Source: an uncultured archaeon
GTDB taxonomy: Archaea; Asgardarchaeota; Heimdallarchaeia; Heimdallarchaeales; Heimdallarchaeaceae
Direction: 5' to 3'
Length of the DNA stretch: 59,990 nt
Assembly (NCBI GenBank): GCA_964534625.1
Contig: CAZHRF010000015.1
Span: 1-59,990 of the forward strand
Shown: positions 25,043 to 56,881 of the stretch, piece by piece
How the letters are laid out: each line of letters begins with the position of its first letter
Numbering within the stretch: the stretch's first letter is position 1
Notes under the pieces: model-generated
Told to the model about the DNA's origin: nothing
The model's input: only the letters and a program-made list of their open reading frames with translations
Database searches by the model: none
Position numbers and translations under genes: made by a program

Positions 25043-26356
25043 CTACTTTGGTCTAAAGTGTTTTCTAGTATAGATTATCAATCCCAACACCAAATACGTT
25101 ATTGATAAAACAGCTAGTAATCCGAGATCAAACCAATTATCTTGTAAAGTTCTCTGCCCTAAAATAATTGATCTCAATATTCTTATTGCTGGAGTTGAAG
25201 GTAAAATGTCAAACATTCTGAATGAGTATCCACCTAGCCATGCGATATTGGTGATTAATTCAGGATTTGGCATCATGCTAAAACCACCAGATAAGAAAGT
25301 CATTGGGACAGCTATTAAATTTGCCAACCCTTCTGCATCCTGACTACCTCCTGCTAAACCAGCAAGTAAGAAAGCGATTCCTGTCGTTGCAAAGGATAAT
25401 ATAACACCTACAAGGATGCCTGATAATACATGAATCGTTGGTTCAATACCAAATACTATTGCAGTTCCGAACATTATTGGAACTTGAATGCTCACTAGTA
25501 TAGCTTGACTAACTATTAGTGCTAGAACATAGATTTTGGCTGGTACTCGAGTTAATCGTATACGCTCTAAAGTTTTTGATTCTACATCACGCATTGTAAC
25601 ACCAGCAGAAGATGTTAAAGATTGAAGAACACCAAAAATAATCACACCAGGCACAATATAATGGAATCCCGTAAACCCTTTAGTTGCATAGCTACCTTTA
25701 ATATTTGTTTGAACACCAGTTTGTTGATCAGTATTACCCAATTGAAAGAAAATATCACTAAATTCTCTAATTATTGTTCCAGTTACCGCAAATTCTTGCA
25801 GAGAAGCATCACCCTCTACTGTTATAGTAAGGTTCTCGACTACATCAGGATATCCTTCCCAGTTGTTTGTAGCTGAAGCCAATTCTGTGTTGTTGTGGTA
25901 ATATTCTTTAAAGGAGGATAACACTCCCAAACTGAAATTTTCAGGTAGTAAAACAATAGCTACAATGTCTCTTCTTTCTAATTTGAACATCGCATTGTCA
26001 TATTCAGAATGATTCATCACTTGCAACGAAAATAAAGTCGTGTTGTCCTTTGAATCAGGATAGATAAGCTCATCTAATAATTTAACATATTTTTCTGAAT
26101 AGAAAGTACCAGAAACAAGTTGTTCACCATAAAAGGCTATGGTATTTTCAGGTATTCCTGTATCAGTATTAATAATCACAATTTCCATTGTATTGGCATT
26201 ATTTGCTGTCCCAGAATAAGATATCCCAAAAACAGCTATAAAGATGAGTGGAAAGATGATTGTGAAAAAGAAAGCCATCTTTTGACGGTATATAGCTTTC
26301 AAATTGGTATCAATTAGTTTTATAAACATATTATCTTTAATTTTCATTGTTTTCAC
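25043..26356 (-). CDS. ABC-2 type transporter permease
   Basis: FFTIIFPLIF, large extracellular loop, YIVPG, TLERI, FLSGGF. Confidence 0.88.
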   Translation of the reverse strand: MKTMKIKDNMFIKLIDTNLKAIYRQKMAFFFTIIFPLIFIAVFGISYSGTANNANTMEIVIINTDTGIPENTIAFYGEQLVSGTFYSEKYVKLLDELIYPDSKDNTTLFSLQVMNHSEYDNAMFKLERRDIVAIVLLPENFSLGVLSSFKEYYHNNTELASATNNWEGYPDVVENLTITVEGDASLQEFAVTGTIIREFSDIFFQLGNTDQQTGVQTNIKGSYATKGFTGFHYIVPGVIIFGVLQSLTSSAGVTMRDVESKTLERIRLTRVPAKIYVLALIVSQAILVSIQVPIMFGTAIVFGIEPTIHVLSGILVGVILSFATTGIAFLLAGLAGGSQDAEGLANLIAVPMTFLSGGFSMMPNPELITNIAWLGGYSFRMFDILPSTPAIRILRSIILGQRTLQDNWFDLGLLAVLSITYLVLGLIIYTRKHFRPK

Positions 26357-27335
26357 TCTGTATATCTTCTAAATGATTATTCCCTTCCCTAAGTTGTTTT
26401 CCTGTTAGATGCAAGAACACATCTTCTAATGTTCCTAGTCGTAATTGGATGTCTTGGAGATAATTAACAGCGTTTGATTTTTCAAGTATTCCCATTACTT
26501 TCGTAATGTCGGATACGCCTGTAGATGTTTTAATATAATGGCGTTCATTTTCAGTAATTAATTGAGGATATTTTGCTTTTAGCTTGCCTAGTAGTTTTTC
26601 TTCCTGTTTCTTATCAATATTCTTAGAAAATTGAAGTTCAATTGTTTCTCCCGTTTTATGCTTGTTTTTCAATTCATCAGGGGTACCGATTGTTAGCACT
26701 TTTCCATGATCAATAATGGCGATTCGGTCACTTAACCTATCTGCAACTTCCATCAAATGAGTCGTTAAGATTATTGTAACGCCTTCATTTTGAACGAGAT
26801 TATCAATACTCTCCCAAAGAACATTGCGACTTTGGGGATCCATTCCGGCAGAGGGTTCGTCTAAAAAAAGTATCTCAGGCGAATGAAGAAGACTAAGAGC
26901 GATGTTGAGCCTTCTTTTTTGTCCTCCGCTCATATTTTCTGCTTTACGATCTGAAAGGTCCAATAACTGAAATAATTCCATTAATTCAAATATTCTTTCT
27001 TCCGCATTGGGAACATTGTAAAGACTAGCGAATAAGCGCATGTTTTCTAGGCAATTAAGAAAAGGATAAAAAACAAGCTCTTGGGGGGTATAACCTATTA
27101 ATCCTTTGAGTTCAGAAAGATTGCCATTAAGTTTCTTTCCATTAACTAGGATCTCACCATTATCTGGTTTCAAAATGCCAACAAGCATTTTGATATAGGT
27201 TGTCTTTCCAGCACCATTAGGGCCCAAGAAGCCAAGTACTTCACCTTTGTACAATTCAAGGTTTATACCTTGTACAGCCTTGACTTTTTTATCGTAAGTT
27301 TTTACTAATTGTTTTGTTTGTAGTACGACTGACAT
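26337..27335 (-). CDS. ABC transporter ATP-binding protein (start probably MSVVLQ at 27335)
   Basis: GPNGAGKTT, MSGGQKRR, LFLDEP, TTHLMEVA. Confidence 0.93.
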   Translation of the reverse strand: MSVVLQTKQLVKTYDKKVKAVQGINLELYKGEVLGFLGPNGAGKTTYIKMLVGILKPDNGEILVNGKKLNGNLSELKGLIGYTPQELVFYPFLNCLENMRLFASLYNVPNAEERIFELMELFQLLDLSDRKAENMSGGQKRRLNIALSLLHSPEILFLDEPSAGMDPQSRNVLWESIDNLVQNEGVTIILTTHLMEVADRLSDRIAIIDHGKVLTIGTPDELKNKHKTGETIELQFSKNIDKKQEEKLLGKLKAKYPQLITENERHYIKTSTGVSDITKVMGILEKSNAVNYLQDIQLRLGTLEDVFLHLTGKQLREGNNHLEDIQSENNEN

Positions 27336-27484
27336 AAGATACATTTGAATAGTTAGTATATAAAGAGAGAAATTTCTTGTAAAAACAGAGTAGTTTAAGT
27401 AACAGACAAGTTTGTTCCACAAACCAAATATTCACTCATTGTTATGACCGACATAAATGACAAAAAATTATTTAATAAAAAAAA

Positions 27485-29158
27485 TTAGGAAAACATTTTT
27501 TTTATGTCTTCCTCAGGTGTTGTTGTTGGTTTAATCTCAAATTTTTCTACCAATATATCCACAACATTTTTAGATAGAAATGCAGGAAGAGTTGGTCCCA
27601 ATCTGATATCTTTTACTCCTAACGCCAATAAAGCTAATAACACAATAACCGCTTTTTGTTCATACCAAGCTATATCAAAAGCTAGTGGCAATTCGTTTAC
27701 AGACAATCCTGTTTCTTTTGAGATTTCTAATGCTAAGACAGCCAATGAATAAGAATCATTACATTGTCCCGCATCAATAATTCTTGGAAAGTTACTTATA
27801 GTACCAAGATCTAAATGATTATATCTAAACTTAGCACAACCAGAGGTTAATATTATACTATCTTCAGGCAAGTGTTTAGCTACTTCTGTAAAATATTCTC
27901 TTGACTTAAATCTTCCATCACAGCCACTCATAACTATAAATTTACTAATCTGTCCTTTCTGCACTGCTTCTAGGATTTTTTCTTTGTTAGTAAGAAGCGT
28001 ATTTCTAGCAAAACCTATTGGAATTTTTTTCATTGGTCTTTCTTTTAAATCGCCTAGTTCTATTGCTTGTTCTATTATTTTGCTAAAATCTTTTTGTTTT
28101 CCTTTTTCTCTGTCTGATATATGTTTAGTATCTGGCCATGCTACTAGTCCTGTTGTATAAATTCTATCACTGTATGAATTTTTAGGTTTTTGTAAGCAAT
28201 TTGTTGTCATAAGGATGGGCCCTTCAAATTCTTCAAACTCTGTTTGTTGATTATACCAGCTAGTACCATAGTTCCCTATCAAGTGAGGATATTTCTTTAA
28301 TTTTGGATAAGCATTAGCGGGTAGCATTTCACCATGCGTATAAATATTTACACCTTTTCCTTCAGATTGGATTAGTAATTCTTCTAAATCTAAAAGGTCA
28401 TGCCCACTAACAAGTATTCCTGGTGCGGGTAACGTTCCCCATGTCATTTCTGTAATTTCTGGATCACCATATGTTTCTGTATTGGCTTTATCCAATAAGG
28501 CCATTACCTTAACTCCGTTGTTACCTGTTTCAATTGTCAACTCATACAATTCGTCAATAGTTGCATCTGTTAGAAGTGTAGAGAGAGCACCGTGGACAAA
28601 AGTCATAATCTCACCATCATAATAACCGAGTATATAAGCATGATCTGCATAAGCAGCTATTCCTTTAAGTCCTATAAGGATAAGATTCTTCAAAGAGCGT
28701 ACATCTTCATTGGGTTCTGATAATACTCCTTGTTCCATACCTTTTGCAACTAGGTCATCACGAGAGGCATTTTCTTTGTACCATCTAGCTGCTTGTGGTA
28801 CTGCTCCCTCATAGTCAGTGCCTTTTTCTTCCTTATATTTCTCCAAATACTGATCTTTAATGTAATCTCGTATCATAAATGCTTCTTTTATTTGAGTCTC
28901 TATTCTTTCTGGATCAAAATTTACATTAGTTATTGTTGAAAACAATGCTTCTATGACAAATTTATCCACATCTTTTTCAATCACATCTAATTTTCGTGCT
29001 TCATTCGCATAAAAGCCAATTCCTTTCACAATGAACAATAACATATCCTGTAGACAAGATACTTCTGCTGTTTTTCCACAAATACCTTTAACCGTACATC
29101 CTTCATTTTTCAATGTTTCTTGGCATTGATAACAAAACATATTCATAGTTTTACTCAT
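27485..29158 (-). CDS. hcp: Hydroxylamine reductase (hybrid-cluster protein)
   Basis: MFCYQCQET..GC...G.CGK, SGHDL, YTHGEM, TTNC, GCDG, GQCNDSY, WYEQKA. Confidence 0.97.
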   Translation of the reverse strand: MSKTMNMFCYQCQETLKNEGCTVKGICGKTAEVSCLQDMLLFIVKGIGFYANEARKLDVIEKDVDKFVIEALFSTITNVNFDPERIETQIKEAFMIRDYIKDQYLEKYKEEKGTDYEGAVPQAARWYKENASRDDLVAKGMEQGVLSEPNEDVRSLKNLILIGLKGIAAYADHAYILGYYDGEIMTFVHGALSTLLTDATIDELYELTIETGNNGVKVMALLDKANTETYGDPEITEMTWGTLPAPGILVSGHDLLDLEELLIQSEGKGVNIYTHGEMLPANAYPKLKKYPHLIGNYGTSWYNQQTEFEEFEGPILMTTNCLQKPKNSYSDRIYTTGLVAWPDTKHISDREKGKQKDFSKIIEQAIELGDLKERPMKKIPIGFARNTLLTNKEKILEAVQKGQISKFIVMSGCDGRFKSREYFTEVAKHLPEDSIILTSGCAKFRYNHLDLGTISNFPRIIDAGQCNDSYSLAVLALEISKETGLSVNELPLAFDIAWYEQKAVIVLLALLALGVKDIRLGPTLPAFLSKNVVDILVEKFEIKPTTTPEEDIKKMFS

Positions 29159-29425: not shown

Positions 29426-30784
29426 TCAAATGATTTCTTCAATTATATGTTCAAGGAAAGGATTTATTTTTTGTGTAATAACTAGAGCATAGCTAACAAG
29501 AGAGCTGTTATAAGCGCTTCTATACTCCGCTATTTTTTGTTGGAGCTCTTTTTTTGTGTGAGAGCTTAGCTGTAGAATTGATCTTACAATATCATTAATA
29601 AGTTTCAATTGTGACTGAACATCGGAAAAAATTAATTTGTCATCATCAATAAATTGCTTAAAATATTTATCTTTGATCGGGCATGTATTATTCTTAATTT
29701 TACCCTCATTTAAATCAATTATAGCTGTGTCTTGTATGTCTATTTCGAGCTCATCAATACTTTGATATTTTTGAACTGACATCCCTATGAATGTATCTTT
29801 ATCTATACCTCTTATGTCGTCTAACCAATAATTTGTTGATGCATTTAGATGTTGATTAAAAAATCTTAGCGTGTTAATTGCGGTGTATACAACAGGTTTT
29901 TCTCCCACCACTATTGTTTTACTACTAGTTACAAAAAGGTTAATTGCCAAGTGAATTTTGTTTTTTATATAGTCTTTTACTAACTCTAACGATGTTTCAT
30001 CTTTCAAGCTTGGTATTATATTACAGATTAAACTTTTTTGTATCATTCCAAACACTTGTAAAAGTGGTTTATCTTGGTTCAGCCTTAATATTTTATCATA
30101 ACGCTCTTTCATCATTAATAGCACATCAAATTGAGTATCTGTAATATTTACATATACAATTTCTGTTTTATTTTCCTTAAACTCACAAGTAGCAAAAACG
30201 CCTGATTCTGCTTCTTTCAAATAGAATAAACTATTATTTTTTTTTCCCATTTTCTCTGGAATAATATGTTTTCTATGCTTATTAACAACATACCCTATTT
30301 GTGCCATTATAGCGCTCATTTCGCTTTTTTCAATTATTTTCCATCCTACCCCTTCCTCATCATGTTGCATCACAAAATAATAGGGTTTATTTTCTTTAAT
30401 TGGGCTTATTACACAATTTTCATATTTTTGTTCAATTTCATCCATAACTGCTTCCAAAGTTAATTCTATCGACACAGGATCTTGTCTTCCATCTCTGACC
30501 ATATTGTCAAATACATTTTTTACAAATTCAAATAACTCTTTTGTCATCTTCTCATTTAGTTCTCTACTTGTTTTAAATGCCAAACTAAAATGTTCTTTCT
30601 TATAAAAATTAATGGTATATTCTGCAAAATTTATTGAACTTATTTTTTTCTCGTCAATCGTATTTGAAAACGAGAAAATGGCAGAGAGTAAACCTCCTTC
30701 TAATTGTGAATTACCTTCAAAATCAGGTCTACTAGCCAACAAGTTATTATTTTGATCAAAGACAAATATTTGGATGCTAGTCAT
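29426..30784 (-). CDS. N-terminal longin-like domain + putative DENN-like domains
   Basis: IFVFDQN...LEGGLLSAIFSFS longin pattern. Later IVVGE.....AINTL..F, FIGM and AIIDLNEGKI resemble the cDENN core. Fold call is by eye. Confidence 0.55.
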   Translation of the reverse strand: MTSIQIFVFDQNNNLLASRPDFEGNSQLEGGLLSAIFSFSNTIDEKKISSINFAEYTINFYKKEHFSLAFKTSRELNEKMTKELFEFVKNVFDNMVRDGRQDPVSIELTLEAVMDEIEQKYENCVISPIKENKPYYFVMQHDEEGVGWKIIEKSEMSAIMAQIGYVVNKHRKHIIPEKMGKKNNSLFYLKEAESGVFATCEFKENKTEIVYVNITDTQFDVLLMMKERYDKILRLNQDKPLLQVFGMIQKSLICNIIPSLKDETSLELVKDYIKNKIHLAINLFVTSSKTIVVGEKPVVYTAINTLRFFNQHLNASTNYWLDDIRGIDKDTFIGMSVQKYQSIDELEIDIQDTAIIDLNEGKIKNNTCPIKDKYFKQFIDDDKLIFSDVQSQLKLINDIVRSILQLSSHTKKELQQKIAEYRSAYNSSLVSYALVITQKINPFLEHIIEEII

Positions 30785-30871
30785 CGTACCAATTACTAGA
30801 TTGCATTGATGTTATTTTAATTTGTTGCTCAATACTTTATACAAGCTGTTTCTCTTTAACATGTTTTTCTA

Positions 30872-31678
30872 TTACGACAGCGATTTTTTATATTGTATTT
30901 CAAACCATGATTTTTCTCTGATCATTTTCTTGTACCAATTAGGCATTACCCAACCCAAATACAAGCAGATATAGGCTATCATCAAAAGTAATAATCTCAA
31001 TGACCATAAGACTATTACTATTATAGAATTTTCTGCACCATAAGCAAAACCAACTATATTATTTCTAAAGTAGTATATCACTAATCCAATAACAACTAAT
31101 TCCAACGCTCTTTTTCTCATTTTATCCTTGGCTTTTCTAGATAATACAAATGCTCTATAAATAATTTTAAAGAATAAATATATCTGAATGAAGATATAAG
31201 GGACTAAGAATAGGGTACTAAGTGACAGTCTAACAAGTTCGTTTGAAATAGTATTTTCGACGATCACTATTGGTTGAGATGGTTTGAACAACATCAATTC
31301 TGCTAAGGTTAAGGCAAATAGCGCACCAGAATAAGCTGAAAAAGTATAAACTGTTATCCCTTGAACTATTTCTGAATCTTGTAAAATATGTCTGGATGAA
31401 AAAATATAGAAAAATATCCAGCCAACTAATGGTAAAATAACAGATAATACGGACATTATTGCATAGGTCATGAATTGGGAATTCATAACTTGAAAATATA
31501 AGGAGAGACTATTGGTAAGTGCAGATAAACCAAAAAAGAAATAAGTTATAAACAAAAGTGCTGTGCCTGTGGTTTTCTTTTTAATAAAATTAATCAGAAG
31601 ACCTAGTACCAAGAGTGCAATCAAAAAACTATTTACCCAATCCGAAATTACTATAAACGTTGTTATGGTATCAATCAT
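30872..31678 (-). CDS. 7TM membrane protein (receptor-like)
   Basis: Seven hydrophobic helices, basic TM5-6 loop SRKAKDKMRKRA, C-terminal LGWVMPNWYKK. Confidence 0.75.
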   Translation of the reverse strand: MIDTITTFIVISDWVNSFLIALLVLGLLINFIKKKTTGTALLFITYFFFGLSALTNSLSLYFQVMNSQFMTYAIMSVLSVILPLVGWIFFYIFSSRHILQDSEIVQGITVYTFSAYSGALFALTLAELMLFKPSQPIVIVENTISNELVRLSLSTLFLVPYIFIQIYLFFKIIYRAFVLSRKAKDKMRKRALELVVIGLVIYYFRNNIVGFAYGAENSIIVIVLWSLRLLLLMIAYICLYLGWVMPNWYKKMIREKSWFEIQYKKSLS

Positions 31679-31682
31679 TTTT

Positions 31683-32210
31683 CTAACCTTGTAATTTGTT
31701 TACAAACCATTTGAAACTTTCAAAAATGTTTTGTCCGTTCTTTGCAGAGGTTTCAAATATACCCCAGGTGTATTTTAATTCTATCAGTCCAAATTCTTTA
31801 ATGAATTCACTTTTGTCTATTAATTCGCTTTTGTCTGATTTATTTAATAAAATTAAAACAGTTACGTCATCTCCTAGTTGATGATCGATCACAGTTCTAA
31901 AAACGTTTCTTGCTTCTTCAAATCGCATTTCATTTGCTCTATCAATAACAAAAACAATCCCATCTGATTTTTCATTAACATTCTTCCAGATACCTCTAAA
32001 ATCTTCTTGTCCTGCTAGATCAAATATATTCAGTTCAAGCTTAGGCAAGGAAATATTATCATGGTTGATACCCATAGTAGGAGAGGTTTCTTGGAAAGTA
32101 CCAGTTTCAAGATATTTCAAAATAGTTGTTTTTCCTGCACCATCCAGCCCACAAATAGTTATATCTGCTTTTTTATTTCTTGAAGAAAAAAGTTTAAGTA
32201 AAAATGACAT
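31683..32210 (-). CDS. Arf/Sar-like small GTPase
   Basis: GLDGAGKTT, PTMG, DLAGQ, NKSD, TSAK; N-terminal amphipathic MSFLLKLFS. Confidence 0.92.
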   Translation of the reverse strand: MSFLLKLFSSRNKKADITICGLDGAGKTTILKYLETGTFQETSPTMGINHDNISLPKLELNIFDLAGQEDFRGIWKNVNEKSDGIVFVIDRANEMRFEEARNVFRTVIDHQLGDDVTVLILLNKSDKSELIDKSEFIKEFGLIELKYTWGIFETSAKNGQNIFESFKWFVNKLQG

Positions 32211-32232
32211 TTCTATCGTGTTTCCTCTTTAT

Positions 32233-32727
32233 TTACCAGAGATCGCCAGCTAATGAATCTAAGGCGTCTCCATTTTTGTCTTCGTTTTCTTTTTCTTCAA
32301 AATTGAATCTTATTGTTGCTGTTGAACTAACTTCAATTACTGCTTTTCCTTTCTTGAATCCTTTATATAGATTAGGCATAATCTTTTTTAGTACCTCACC
32401 ATTCAATAATTGTTTTGTTTCTAACTCGTAAATAGTTACTGAAAATACTCTTTTAATTAAGTCTGCGTTATATCCATCACTTGAAAAAACAGCTACAAGA
32501 GTTGCAATATTGTCTCTGCCTTCAGTATTTGGCAATTTAAATGCATAACTAGAGAAATTTACATTTTCTGCTGTTGAAGAAGTGAAATCGCCATGATTAG
32601 CACCCATAGGCATGCACTTGTAAACAAGTTTATTAAGAAGATCTGATGGAAGAACATCGGGAAAAACACTTACTAATTCTAAGCCTGTTTTTCCCATCTG
32701 TACCAAACATAAACTGATAGGTTTCAT
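32233..32727 (-). CDS. Putative uDENN/longin-like protein
   Basis: G.ELVSVFP..L......L..KCMPMG...SYAF.L...GR...TLVAV resembles uDENN-type longin folds (inference). Confidence 0.5.
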   Translation of the reverse strand: MKPISLCLVQMGKTGLELVSVFPDVLPSDLLNKLVYKCMPMGANHGDFTSSTAENVNFSSYAFKLPNTEGRDNIATLVAVFSSDGYNADLIKRVFSVTIYELETKQLLNGEVLKKIMPNLYKGFKKGKAVIEVSSTATIRFNFEEKENEDKNGDALDSLAGDLW

Positions 32728-32832
32728 ATAATCATATATACATTTGTAAAGATTTGATTATAAACATTCATGTGAAGGTAATCAGAGTTACATCTAAGTA
32801 GAAAAAAGGCTTAATTAGCCAATTAAAACCAA

Positions 32833-33471
32833 TTATTCAGTTTCCGATGGATAAAGTAAACCAATTCCAAGAACAATATAAGCGATAATTTGTACAATAC
32901 CAGGAATAATAATCAGAGGCGTACCTTTTGTTTGAACAGTAAATATCCCACCAATTGCAGATAAGATTAATCCTAATGAAACAAGCGAAATCCGCCAATC
33001 TTTGCTTTTTATACCCAAATAGGCAAAAAAACCTGTAGACCACAAAGACATAAGAATGGTAATATATCTGTTAATTTCAGTCGCGTCTCTATAAACAAAA
33101 CTTGTTACACTCAGATAAATGATATTAATTAAAGCTAAAAGAATCGTAATTGTTGTACCTATTAAATTAACTTTATTATCAAAAAGCCCTATAAAAAATG
33201 TACTAAAAGCAAGCATAAAGACAAGTATAAAGACTCCCATTCCTTGAAATAGTCTACTGTAATCAAAAGTTTCCTCCAGAGATGGATTGGTTAGATCAAT
33301 TATCACTTTAGTCAGTATCCCCACCCCTACAGACAAAAAGCCTATAGCCCAAAATAAAGTGATACTTTGCTTCAAATTTATGTATCGCCTCAGATAGTAG
33401 CTGCCTATCCCTAGTGCGACACAAACACCTATTAATATCATTATTAAATGAATAATTTCAAATGTTTGCAT
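32833..33471 (-). CDS. 7TM membrane protein (paralogue of 56204-56881)
   Basis: Seven hydrophobic helices; KDWRI and GIGLLYP shared with the paralogue. Confidence 0.75.
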   Translation of the reverse strand: MQTFEIIHLIMILIGVCVALGIGSYYLRRYINLKQSITLFWAIGFLSVGVGILTKVIIDLTNPSLEETFDYSRLFQGMGVFILVFMLAFSTFFIGLFDNKVNLIGTTITILLALINIIYLSVTSFVYRDATEINRYITILMSLWSTGFFAYLGIKSKDWRISLVSLGLILSAIGGIFTVQTKGTPLIIIPGIVQIIAYIVLGIGLLYPSETE

Positions 33472-33497
33472 AAGTTTTCCTCATGTATATGTATATT

Positions 33498-34154
33498 TTA
33501 TCTGAATAATGCGTATTTTAGTTTTGACACTGCTTTTTCTAATCTGTTTCCGTATTCATCAATGAGTTGACTAAATGTATCTTGATAGTCTACTGTCAGC
33601 CCTATACTTGTAATTAATGTTTTTAATAGTACAACTCTTTTTTGGACATCTTCTTTTGATAATGTGTCTTTTTCAGTATGTAGATTCAATAATTCTTTAG
33701 CTGCTTCCTTTTTGTTTATTTGTTTTGTTTCATATGCTTCTAGAACAGCCTTAACTTGATTTTCTATACTATGTTCTTTACTACCCTCAAATTCGCATAT
33801 CTCAATAATATCTTGAGCAAACTCCGTATTTAAAAGATCCTCGTTATGTTCAAAAGACACCAGTTTTTCATATTTTGATTTAAGTTCATCAAAATTTTGA
33901 TGTAATTCATTAACTTCCATATCAGATACAGGTTTTTTTAGCATTAGAGCTACTCTTAATTTGTCTAACGGAAAAGTAACTAATGAATCTGAATCAAAAT
34001 CTACTTGATGGATATCGGTCCCTAGTGTTTGTGCCAAAGTAATAATAGCTGAAAGCACACCACCAAATAATTGCTCATCTATTATTTTCGATTTGCTATG
34101 GGAAAACAAGGTTAACCCTGTGTTGTTCATTATCCAACAACTTTGCACACTCAT
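33498..34154 (-). CDS. Longin-like domain protein (paralogue of 55515-56183)
   Basis: WIMNNTGLTLF, DEQLFGGVLSA, helical C-terminus ending ALFR. Confidence 0.7.
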   Translation of the reverse strand: MSVQSCWIMNNTGLTLFSHSKSKIIDEQLFGGVLSAIITLAQTLGTDIHQVDFDSDSLVTFPLDKLRVALMLKKPVSDMEVNELHQNFDELKSKYEKLVSFEHNEDLLNTEFAQDIIEICEFEGSKEHSIENQVKAVLEAYETKQINKKEAAKELLNLHTEKDTLSKEDVQKRVVLLKTLITSIGLTVDYQDTFSQLIDEYGNRLEKAVSKLKYALFR

Positions 34155-34702: not shown

Positions 34703-34891
34703 TTATTCTTTCTGGATCATGGCTTCTCTTCTTTCAATTTCGTTGTCTGGGACTTCGAATAAGCCGTGTGAATCCTGTAAATGTTGTCTAATTTTTTGTG
34801 ATGTTTCGTCTTTAGACTTTCCTCGTAGTTTTATGTCGCACATGTCGCATGTGTAAGTGTATTGTGTCATAGTATTCACTCTGTGTACCAA
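34703..34891 (-). CDS. Small metal-binding protein (DUF1059-like)
   Basis: CDMC...G....E......H....HG. Confidence 0.6.
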   Translation of the reverse strand: MVHRVNTMTQYTYTCDMCDIKLRGKSKDETSQKIRQHLQDSHGLFEVPDNEIERREAMIQKE

Positions 34892-55514: not shown

Positions 55515-56183
55515 ATGGATGCGCAGACGCCCCTAGGTTTTTGGATTATCAATCATGGAGGTTCGACATTACTAAGTTACACTTCTGAAAGTGAAAAGGT
55601 GGATGAACAGCTTTTTGGAGGTGTTTTATCAGCACTTATGTCTTTTGCTCATTCATTGGGAGAAGACATACACAAAATAGATTTTGGGAAATCCAGTTTG
55701 ATTACTTTCACAATAAAAAATCTTAGAATCGTTTTAATGCTACGAAATCCTTTAAAAGACAAAGAAATCTCTCATTATCAGACACAATTTCTGGGTCTAG
55801 AAGACAGATTTCCTTCTTATTTTAAAGAAGAGATATATTACGAAATAGCTGATACTCCATTCGCTGATGAAATATTTGAGCTATTCGATCTGTCAAAAAA
55901 TGAGCAAAAATCAACTATATTTGTTGATCTTAATGCTATTTTAGTTTCATTTAAAAGAGATAAATTGACTAAAAAAGATGCTGTAGAAGAAATGATAAAG
56001 ATTAGTAAAGGATTAGATATTAATCAAAAAGAGATTAAAAATTTACACCAAAAAATAGGTTATTTAATCAAAAATGGCGGTTTTAACGAAGAAGACAAAA
56101 AAATATTTGGTGAGTTAATGGAAGATTATCAAACAGGATTACTTAAAGCACTAAGTAATTTTCAATCAGCATTATTTAGATAA
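55515..56183 (+). CDS. Longin-like domain protein (paralogue of 33498-34154)
   Basis: WIINHGGSTL, DEQLFGGVLSA, ends ALFR. Confidence 0.72.
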   Translation: MDAQTPLGFWIINHGGSTLLSYTSESEKVDEQLFGGVLSALMSFAHSLGEDIHKIDFGKSSLITFTIKNLRIVLMLRNPLKDKEISHYQTQFLGLEDRFPSYFKEEIYYEIADTPFADEIFELFDLSKNEQKSTIFVDLNAILVSFKRDKLTKKDAVEEMIKISKGLDINQKEIKNLHQKIGYLIKNGGFNEEDKKIFGELMEDYQTGLLKALSNFQSALFR

Positions 56184-56203
56184 TAAATAGAGAGTGTGAA
56201 AAA

Positions 56204-56881
56204 ATGTTGTTATTATATAAATTAGATAACTTTATCCTTTGGGAAGCAATTTTATTTTCATTTGGATCTATTGTTACTTTGGGAATTGGAATTTATTATT
56301 TGCATAGATATAAAAACACTAAATCACTATTAACTTTACAATGGGGATTAGGTTTCTTCATTTTAGGATTTGGACTTTTTATAAACACAATTTTCGTAGA
56401 TTTCTTTGAAGTATTTGAATATGAAGTGGAAGGGAGAAGGGTATTATTTCAAGATCTTTTCGCTAGAACAGGCCTTCTTATCTTCTTAACATTTTTAGCC
56501 TGGAGCATATTTTCTTTACAATTTTTCAGTAAAGAAGTAGAAAAAGTAGGCTCGAAAATAGTTCTATCAATTGGATCGGTTTGTATTGCCTATCATGTAA
56601 TTGTTACATTATTCTCAATTGATGTTTTTAATTTAGGTCTAATTGTCTTAGTTTTGTATTCTATATTTATACTAGGATTCTTTTTTTATTTCGCATATAA
56701 AACAAAAGATTGGCGGATTGCATTAATATCGATAGGCATGCTAGGTTCAGCTATTGTGAGGATAAGACACATACCATCAATAAGTGAAACAATATTGGCA
56801 CTCATAATCCTTTTTTTGGTTAATATTTCGTATCTGTTAATTGGAATTGGTTTATTATATCCAAAAAAGAAAGAAGCATAA
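56204..56881 (+). CDS. 7TM membrane protein (paralogue of 32833-33471)
   Basis: Seven TM helices; LGIG.YYL.RY, KDWRI, GIGLLYP. Confidence 0.75.
   Translation: MLLLYKLDNFILWEAILFSFGSIVTLGIGIYYLHRYKNTKSLLTLQWGLGFFILGFGLFINTIFVDFFEVFEYEVEGRRVLFQDLFARTGLLIFLTFLAWSIFSLQFFSKEVEKVGSKIVLSIGSVCIAYHVIVTLFSIDVFNLGLIVLVLYSIFILGFFFYFAYKTKDWRIALISIGMLGSAIVRIRHIPSISETILALIILFLVNISYLLIGIGLLYPKKKEA

Follow-up and report, generated by a model that had tools for sequence, protein, structure and literature searches.

A stretch of 59,990 nucleotides from an uncultured Heimdallarchaeaceae archaeon (contig CAZHRF010000015.1; 'the window' in the following) carries on its minus strand a run of six genes, three of which, encoding in this order a longin protein (P0003), an Arf-type small GTPase (P0004) and a seven-helix membrane protein (P0005), make up a conserved unit, whereas the run of six as a whole is not conserved as an operon. 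The trio is probably a membrane-bound small-GTPase switch cassette. Folds, motifs and the conservation of gene order were computed here, and from them we infer the physical interactions, the direction of regulation and any signal input. No description of a unit formed by a longin, an Arf GTPase and a seven-transmembrane-helix (7TM) protein was found in the literature searched.

The names P0001 to P0006 follow the gene order, the proteins being of 218, 212, 164, 175, 268 and 452 residues, respectively. The six open reading frames (ORFs), all co-oriented, and the gaps of 26, 105, 22, 4 and 87 bp between them are exactly as a sequence-only reading of this DNA had given them:

P0001: 33498-34154, minus strand; 218 residues, N-terminal longin-like domain and helical C-terminal half.
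P0002: 32833-33471, minus strand; 212 residues, predicted seven-helix membrane protein.
Spacer between P0002 and P0003: 32728-32832, minus strand; 105 bp, a T6 tract and then a TATA-like element, read from the sequence.
P0003: 32233-32727, minus strand; 164 residues, NPRL2/NPRL3-type longin by predicted fold.
P0004: 31683-32210, minus strand; 175 residues, Arf-family small GTPase by Pfam.
P0005: 30872-31678, minus strand; 268 residues, predicted seven-helix membrane protein of an Asgard-wide family.
P0006: 29426-30784, minus strand; 452 residues, longin (1-124), second longin (135-251) and folliculin-type DENN domain (262-441) by predicted fold.

The case for the trio starts from gene order, which was surveyed at 40 loci from related genomes, the counts spanning relatives and paralogs and not being independent. 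Close orthologs of P0003 (43-58% identity) are present in 11/30 genomes of the window's family and in 10/12 of a second family of the same class, with up to eight P0003 matches in a genome, and distant homologs of 165-175 residues are found in three further families of the phylum. The order P0003-like gene, Arf GTPase gene, P0005-like gene is kept in 18/18 close cassettes (17 and the window) from two Heimdallarchaeial families, in which neighbouring genes of the trio touch or overlap and the surrounding genes are unrelated. Among the 29 modules with a P0003-like gene, 26 include an Arf-type GTPase and all 29 an adjacent multi-transmembrane protein, that of locus L062 being only a 125-residue fragment. 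Since the same order recurs in 17 other close cassettes, the adjacency of the middle three genes is more than chance, which would place a small GTPase next to a given gene in ~5% of cases (3.4 Mb with ~47 matches to small GTPases); adjacency beyond chance is not supported for the two upstream genes. Thus, the expectation that the gene order would be kept in relatives holds for the trio, extends to P0006 in this family only, and fails for P0001-P0002, which was seen at no other trio.

A distant variant of the module occurs in other Asgard families (L063-L066, L069 and L070), surrounded by ordinary metabolic genes, and consists of a P0003-like longin, two 7TM proteins of ~215 residues and an Arf GTPase of ~300 residues. 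Its two membrane proteins (six to seven helices) are mutually paralogous (hhalign 93.6%), the second, GTPase-proximal one being homologous to P0005 (hhalign 97.5%, E 5.5e-12). Furthermore, the extra C-terminal 105 residues of the variant GTPase, a longin of the 'GGLxSAI' type, are homologous to the first longin of P0006 (hidden Markov model, HMM, E 3e-9 to 7e-6; hhalign 95.9%, E 6e-9). L069 and L070 each have two divergent copies of the variant, arranged back to back.

A tree of 65 GTPase domains, including 37 other GTPases of the window's own genome, places the cassette GTPases in an exclusive clade (support 1.0) and those of the distant modules in another (0.999), the two clades being sisters (0.68) that leave out the 37 others. 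The pairwise distances of the three cassette proteins across the 18 cassettes are correlated (r 0.87-0.91, Mantel p 5e-4), on which ground the cassette is taken to have been copied and inherited as a block.

P0004 is the only one of the six proteins with a significant sequence-family match (Pfam, NCBIfam), which identifies it as an Arf-family small GTPase (PF00025, 142.9 bits, E 9.5e-42, cut-off 22.3) rather than a Ras one (62.2 bits), as had been read from the letters. It carries the motifs GLDGAGKTT, DLAGQ, NKSD and TSAK, which appear across 16 orthologs as GLDxAGKT, DxxGQ, NKxD and TSA, and M1, F3, L7, F8 and Q68 are invariant in the same set. The N-terminal segment MSFLLKLF is predicted to form an amphipathic helix and its M-x-F-x-x-x-L-F pattern is kept in the 16 orthologs. 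Since the protein begins M-S-F, it has no Gly2 for the N-myristoylation of classical Arf1-6; Gly2 is also missing from Sar1, Arl8 and the Asgard Arf proteins. In the ortholog alignment, the catalytic Gln68 is retained and switch I is without an arginine.

The nearest folds to P0003 are those of eukaryotic longins that act as GTPase-activating proteins (GAPs). NPRL2, FLCN and SMCR8 are longins, each of which, paired with a second longin, provides an arginine (Arg78, Arg164 and Arg147, respectively) that enters the active site of a GTPase of the Rag or Arf kind, the clients being RagA/B for NPRL2-NPRL3 in GATOR1, RagC/D for FLCN-FNIP and ARF1 for C9orf72-SMCR8. The AlphaFold2 (AF2) model of P0003 (39 homologs; predicted local distance difference test, pLDDT, 82.8) is a longin extended by a helix and a hairpin, in which two strands, a helix, three strands and further helices follow one another in the order typical of longins and not of Roadblock proteins. 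It matches NPRL2 in VIA-align with Z 16.1 (150 residues onto NPRL2 5-166, root-mean-square deviation, rmsd, 3.7), the extra helix and hairpin of NPRL2 being included in the alignment, versus Z 12.2 for FLCN, 10.3 for the uDENN domain of DENND1A and ~10 for SNARE and adaptin longins. All of the top 12 Foldseek matches are GATOR1/SEA subunits (NPRL2, NPRL3, yeast Npr2/Npr3; E 5e-7, query template-modelling score 0.73). A shape search of the ESM Atlas, which holds no model of P0003 or P0012, likewise led to NPRL2 and NPRL3 clusters (template-modelling score 0.72-0.73), and also to an Asgard cluster of 341-residue Arf proteins containing a P0003-like domain.

At the level of sequence, neither P0003 nor 24 homologs gave a Pfam match even at E 5, NPR2 (PF06218) and NPR3 included; a search of PDB sequences with P0003 family profiles found no match, and a protein language model gave only a lead, from P0003 to clusters carrying NPR2. 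No fused forms of P0003 were found among longer proteins, which is weak evidence. Because hhalign detects no relation between the P0003 and P0006 families, P0003 is not to be seen as a copy of either P0006 longin.

Only three residues are invariant in the 39 homologs of P0003, namely P23, P40 and R71, the last being the sole charged one. In the model, R71 is part of the loop that joins the fourth strand (56-65) to the fifth (73-81), and the alignment of model residues 1-150 with NPRL2 5-166 is compatible, as a matter of ranges and not of residue-level correspondence, with its being the counterpart of NPRL2 Arg78. A motif that precedes strand 2 (GP) and an arginine finger are common to GAP longins and to some Asgard longins according to a 2025 survey, which also asks which GTPases, Arf-related or Rag, the GAP-like Asgard longins serve (PMC12290439). 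The GP-motif site reads G15-L16-E17 in P0003 and its close orthologs and G-P-E or N-P-E in distant members. The NPRL2 fold, the invariant R71, the retained Gln68 of P0004 and the lack of an arginine in its switch I favour a role of P0003 as the GAP for P0004, a model-based assignment to which we give a little less than an even chance. An adaptor role is a distinctly weaker candidate, and that of an exchange factor for guanine nucleotides (GEF) ranks slightly below it. The sequence-only reading had described the 164-residue protein as uDENN-like and the GTPase as having its own GEFs. The first description stands as far as the longin-type fold goes, uDENN domains belonging there, and gives way to NPRL2/NPRL3 as the nearer structures (Z 16 versus 10); the second is, for P0003, the less likely reading, the nearest fold being that of the GAP-type NPRL2/NPRL3 longins, with an invariant arginine.

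The last 19 residues of P0003 (the 32233-32290 region) are acidic and predicted to be disordered or helical with low confidence; the ending is a conserved D-[DL]-W-[KR] among close homologs and K-G-S-F among distant ones. All P0001 paralogs end in [AS]-L-F-R, and both ends may represent a short docking motif.

P0005 is predicted from hydropathy and the positive-inside rule to span the membrane seven times, with the N-terminus out and the C-terminus in. Its loop between the fifth and sixth transmembrane (TM) segments (TM5-6, residues 176-190) has 7 Lys/Arg, and the tail after TM7, NWYKKMIREKSWFE, is basic, with hydrophobic and basic residues alternating. The 7TM assignment, made beforehand for both membrane proteins, is borne out by seven predicted helices in each, as are, for the 30872-31678 protein, the basic TM5-6 loop and the amphipathic segment after TM7, and the lack of a fused kinase or cyclase domain, no extra domain being present in its 268 residues. 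Homologs of P0005 were taken from genome loci; a word-based homolog search gave only one relative. The family motifs (KKK-T-GT, RHILxDxE, SRKxDxxxRKRG and YLGWxMPxWxRK..K.WFE) are all cytoplasmic, the conserved positions being found in the tail and where TM1, TM3, TM5 and TM7 reach the cytoplasm. Indeed, majority identity is 0.54 in the cytoplasmic loops, 0.42 in the TM segments and 0.31 in the outside loops (Mann-Whitney p 2e-8). This pattern fits a conserved cytoplasmic partner combined with a free or diversifying outside, and would suit a receptor and an anchor alike.

A receptor of the kind of the G-protein-coupled receptors (GPCRs), with P0005 as a ligand-activated exchange catalyst on P0004 and the longin and DENN proteins as further GEFs, has to be considered here, the sequence-only reading having inferred signalling akin to that of GPCRs and Arf proteins. 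The topology, the basic TM5-6 loop, the conserved F..RHIL.D at the cytoplasmic end of TM3, the amphipathic tail, the conserved cytoplasmic face with variable outside loops and the mere 4 bp between the P0005 and GTPase genes all agree with such a layout. However, no Pfam family, 7TM receptor families included, matches P0005 with a meaningful E-value, no conserved polar residues of the kind that would mark a shared ligand pocket are found in its helices or outside loops, the nearest relatives of P0003 are GAPs and not GEFs, and variants of the module keep the longin and the 7TM protein and lose the GTPase, a pattern more easily reconciled with contact between longin and 7TM protein than between 7TM protein and GTPase. 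Taken together, we consider GPCR-like coupling quite improbable. The persistence of longin and 7TM protein without the GTPase suggests, in terms of gene content, that P0005 makes its primary contact with the longin and not with the GTPase. In a complex prediction of P0003, P0004 and GTP, with P0005 scored, replacing the GTPase left the score high, so that it is not specific and counts neither for nor against contact.

P0005 might instead be a passive anchor, transporter or cargo in a module for membrane identity or trafficking, in which Arf and longin mark or remodel a membrane independently of any external signal, as in the cases of Sar1/Sec12, SR-beta/SRX and Arl8. The conserved N-terminal amphipathic helix of P0004, as in Arf/Sar1, is in line with this, and Asgard Arf proteins are membrane-associated when expressed in eukaryotic cells (PMC11914678). 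Weak matches to the NCBIfam family MAB_1171c ('putative transporter') were found in 10/18 P0005 members, and the SRX-SR-beta pair is among the weak Foldseek matches of P0003 (rank 40). The transporter similarity is, however, far below the family cut-off (best E 3e-6), and diverged copies (up to eight P0003 matches per genome) with highly variable outside loops suit diversified inputs better than a single housekeeping route, so that we hold a trafficking module to be improbable.

Paralogs of the P0005 family that have no P0003-like neighbour are found in the window's own genome at C80:44-811, C4:11790-12509 and C4:22853-23695, the first being directly preceded by an overlapping ORF for a soluble protein of 144 residues.

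P0006, expected to combine a longin with a DENN-like domain, models as longin, longin and DENN. The AF2 model (32 homologs, pLDDT 81.6, predicted template-modelling score, pTM, 0.73) is divided into a longin (1-124), another longin-like domain (135-251) and, at 262-441, an alpha/beta domain, and its first Foldseek matches are DENND1A, FLCN and C9orf72 (E 4e-7 to 1e-6), followed by DENND1B and Mon1-Ccz1 (to 1e-5). In VIA-align, residues 262-441 are most similar to FLCN 345-558 (Z 13.4, rmsd 3.6, 174 residues), ahead of DENND1A (Z 11.8) and SMCR8 (Z 11.4), and residues 1-126 match many longins with ~Z 12. The Pfam DENN, folliculin and C9orf72 models gave nothing better than E 0.69 with P0006, and no arginine, such as the finger of the FLCN/SMCR8 class, is found among the invariant or near-invariant columns of its 32 homologs.

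Full-length homologs of P0006 (~25% identity) occur in 25/30 genomes of the window's family, in many cases as tandem pairs, and fall into only 29 clusters among 1.8 billion library proteins. They lie downstream of the trio in 5/5 trio loci of the sister genus g5. The association of P0006 with the trio is one of lineage-specific synteny, with a domain-fusion hint, and is confined to this family. In the sister genus, a GNAT acetyltransferase gene on the opposite strand lies between tandem P0006 paralogs (L031:8201-8953; also L034, L046 and L049), and at L031, L046 and L049 a flavin-reductase-like gene separates the 7TM gene from the first P0006 copy.

If the trio is a switch cassette, P0004 would bind membranes via its N-terminal amphipathic helix and would hydrolyse GTP fast only with an arginine provided in trans. 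P0003 would be its dedicated regulator, most likely a GAP inserting R71 in the way of NPRL2, FLCN and SMCR8 and less likely a GEF or an adaptor for the GTP state. The cytoplasmic loops and tail of P0005 would serve as a docking platform for the longin and/or the GTPase, fixing the switch to the membrane and possibly coupling it to a cue from outside or from the lipid phase. P0006 would be a regulator added in this family, either as a non-catalytic longin partner of P0003 or as an exchange factor of the DENN type, and P0001-P0002 a separate longin and 7TM pair that merely adjoins upstream. Candidates for the partner of P0003 in a GAP would be residues 1-124 of P0006 and the longin fused to the GTPase in the distant variant.

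A number of points weigh against this scheme. Known longin GAPs work as heterodimers, and the partner of P0003 is a candidate only; G-L-E, not G-P, stands at the GP-motif site; the equivalence of R71 and NPRL2 Arg78 is drawn from alignment ranges, not from residue superposition; and longins are more often GEF platforms or adaptors. At L062, L067 and L068 the longin and the 7TM protein have no adjacent GTPase, and neither has a copy in the own genome (C36:31027-32793, at a contig end), where a P0003-like gene (cut), a 213-residue 7TM protein and a 269-residue P0005-like one (HMM E 9e-20) are laid out as at L067/L068. Furthermore, 3/5 P0005 paralogs in the own genome are without a longin neighbour and, given these and the variants that lack the GTPase, the 7TM family also works outside the cassette. 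P0006 homologs, too, mostly occur at a distance from any GTPase gene. Finally, correlated distances can arise from shared history alone.

Some of these points bear on the possibility that P0003 is not a GAP and is instead a GEF platform, or an effector or adaptor that bridges GTP-bound GTPase and 7TM protein, GAP activity coming from P0006 or from elsewhere. Indeed, most longin assemblies (e.g. TRAPP, Mon1-Ccz1 and DENN) are GEFs and such assemblies are among the fold matches of P0003 at lower Z, and the proline of the GP motif is missing; on the other hand, GAP-type longins are the best matches by 4-6 Z units, with the extra helix and hairpin of NPRL2 covered, and R71 remains the only invariant charged residue in 39 homologs. 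Hence, a non-GAP P0003 appears unlikely to us, if less so than a trafficking module, and the switch cassette with P0003 as its regulator is the reading that we retain.

The two upstream genes call for separate treatment. The N-terminus of P0001 is longin-like and, as is the first longin of P0006, of the 'GGxLSAI' type; the C-terminal half is helical and ends in ALFR. The earlier view of this 218-residue protein as a longin is supported by the alignment of its N-terminal ~90 residues with the first P0006 longin (P0001 family versus P0006 family, residues 6-89 onto 6-89; hhalign 78%, E 1.7e-5), a sequence-based result; the HMM of that P0006 longin matches three P0001 paralogs of the own genome (E 2e-8 to 7e-7), P0001 itself falling outside E 1e-3. 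P0002 has seven hydrophobic segments, with the N-terminus out and the C-terminus in, as predicted by the approach used for P0005. Its relation to the P0005 family (hhalign 14.6%) or to the first 7TM protein of the distant variant (1.1%) is not supported.

That all six genes form one operon, the candidate of the sequence-only reading, and encode a single six-protein machine seems to us very improbable. The shared orientation and the short gaps speak for it, and the set of two 7TM proteins, NPRL2-like longin, GTPase and 'GGxLSAI' longin mirrors the composition of the four-gene Asgard variant. However, only the trio is conserved: P0001-P0002 was found on the flanks of none of the 17 other trio cassettes, and P0002 as a query had no match in any of the 28 other genomes examined in this family and matched in a few genomes of other families. 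Moreover, the own genome contains four pairs of this type, each P0002 copy adjoining a P0001 paralog, and the other three have no GTPase nearby. P0002 is, as said, not detectably related to the first 7TM protein of the variant, and the spacer before P0003 has a T6 tract followed by the TATA-like TTTATAAT ~40 nucleotides before the P0003 start codon. The absence of the pair from other trios, the four pairs in the own genome and this spacer lead to the reading of P0001-P0002 as a separate, patchily distributed module by gene content, the 105-bp spacer being a probable boundary between two transcription units. One of the additional pairs lies in the window itself (55515-56881, plus strand; proteins of 222 and 225 residues, 33% identity to P0001-P0002, 20-bp gap) and the other two on contigs C14 and C90. 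Elsewhere in the own genome, C6:60403-61704 encodes a 433-residue protein in which an N-terminal 'GGLxSAI' longin is fused to at least five predicted TM helices unrelated to P0002 and P0005, which shows, as judged from the predicted protein, that longin domains are also tied covalently to polytopic membrane domains in this organism.

The cluster is bounded upstream by a 1.1-kb spacer containing only a small ORF and downstream by genes unrelated to it, which have their own upstream region:

CxxC ORF: 34703-34891, minus strand; 62 residues with a C-x-x-C pair, followed by T-rich tracts, in the spacer upstream of P0001.
Hybrid-cluster (prismane) protein: 27485-29158, minus strand; Pfam E 3e-161, directly downstream of the cluster.
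ABC-2 transporter pair: 25043-27422, minus strand; downstream of the cluster.

Pfam detected no kinase domain in the six proteins. A scan for sigma-70 promoters and hairpin terminators gave counts no better than those of shuffled sequence, the model being bacterial and the host an archaeon. The window is AT-rich (G+C ~32%) and its source genome (3.37 Mb, 120 contigs, 90% complete) has 47 matches to the Arf model, in keeping with the Asgard-type GTPase expansion. Relatives with the same genes are labelled as Heimdallarchaeota or Promethearchaeati metagenome-assembled genomes, and among the sequencing runs listed the stretch is present in four DNA runs from one microbial-mat study, possibly its source, and in no RNA run.

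Among known systems, the longin GAP complexes of eukaryotes are close to the cassette in several respects. P0003 has the NPRL2/NPRL3 fold with its extension (Z 16.1) and an invariant arginine in an inter-strand loop, P0006 has the longin and DENN layout of FLCN, whose C-terminal domain is its best match (Z 13.4), and the client would be a small GTPase with a catalytic glutamine, for which an Arf precedent exists in C9orf72-SMCR8, a longin pair acting as a GAP on ARF1 via SMCR8 Arg147 (PMC8213707). The differences are also several: none of the proteins matches Pfam NPR2, NPR3 or folliculin; P0003 is a stand-alone protein of 164 residues, without C-terminal domains and with G-L in place of G-P; P0006 has two longins and no conserved arginine; and the putative client is of the Arf and not the Rag kind, its gene sharing an operon with that of a 7TM protein.

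Lysosomal membrane proteins are known to engage such complexes, PQLC2 recruiting C9orf72-SMCR8-WDR41. The nearest eukaryotic analogue of a 7TM-type protein with an NPRL2-type GAP would be LYCHOS/GPR155, which binds GATOR1 (PMC11525196). In both cases a polytopic membrane protein, GPCR-like in LYCHOS, is tied to an NPRL2-type GAP, established or putative, controlling a GTPase at a membrane surface, but P0005 is a bare 268-residue 7TM protein lacking a transporter domain, and the tie is here one of gene adjacency only. The cassette might be an archaeal forerunner of lysosomal nutrient-sensing logic, in which a 7TM sensor, altering its shape upon a ligand or membrane cue, acts via its conserved cytoplasmic face on an NPRL2-like GAP paired with a second longin, as NPRL2 is with NPRL3, and this in turn on the GTP state of an Arf switch, an idea that we regard as doubtful; if true, the many diverged cassette copies per genome would amount to a receptor repertoire.

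Within the Asgard archaea, Liu et al. (bioRxiv 10.1101/2020.10.19.343400) reported NPRL2-like longins and FLCN-like longin-DENN proteins, together with an operon of a LAMTOR1-like Roadblock protein, a Rab-like GTPase and a DENN protein. Both clusters join a small GTPase, a Roadblock/longin-superfamily protein and a DENN protein, but the one described here has an Arf-type GTPase (142.9 versus 62.2 bits for Ras) and an NPRL2-type longin instead of a Rab-like GTPase and a Roadblock protein, its DENN protein is loosely linked, and its conserved third member is a 7TM protein, not mentioned in their text. P0004 belongs with the Asgard Arf proteins (ArfR, bioRxiv 10.1101/2024.02.28.582541; AArf, PMC11914678), sharing their Arf motifs and N-terminal amphipathic helix without Gly2; the papers on these make no mention of operons, neighbours or transmembrane partners, and Tran et al. 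stated for MK-D1 that genes for small GTPases as a rule do not share an operon with a longin or Roadblock gene. Asgard Arf GTPases and GAP-like longins have already been published and their native partners have not. The block-inherited operon offers a matched set of three proteins, namely an NPRL2-like longin, one Arf subfamily and a 7TM protein, to be expressed together, and makes testable whether longin-based GAP control of Arf-type switches preceded the eukaryotes, whether such control was already tied to a membrane protein and whether a folliculin-like DENN protein was within the same circuit.

In its logic, the nearest prokaryotic analogue would be the actinobacterial conservon, in which a Roadblock protein and a Ras-like GTPase accompany a membrane sensor kinase and which has long been likened to G-protein-coupled signalling (PMC13343842, PMC13621833). 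The conservon and MglA-MglB share with the cassette the prokaryotic operon in which a membrane protein, a small Ras-superfamily GTPase and a regulator of the Roadblock/longin superfamily are brought together, but the conservon employs a histidine-kinase-like sensor, an MglB-type Roadblock and an MglA/Ras-like GTPase, whereas the cassette has an Arf as its GTPase, a longin as its regulator and no kinase. If the membrane protein is truly a sensor, the cassette would represent a prokaryotic receptor-to-small-GTPase pathway of the eukaryotic type.

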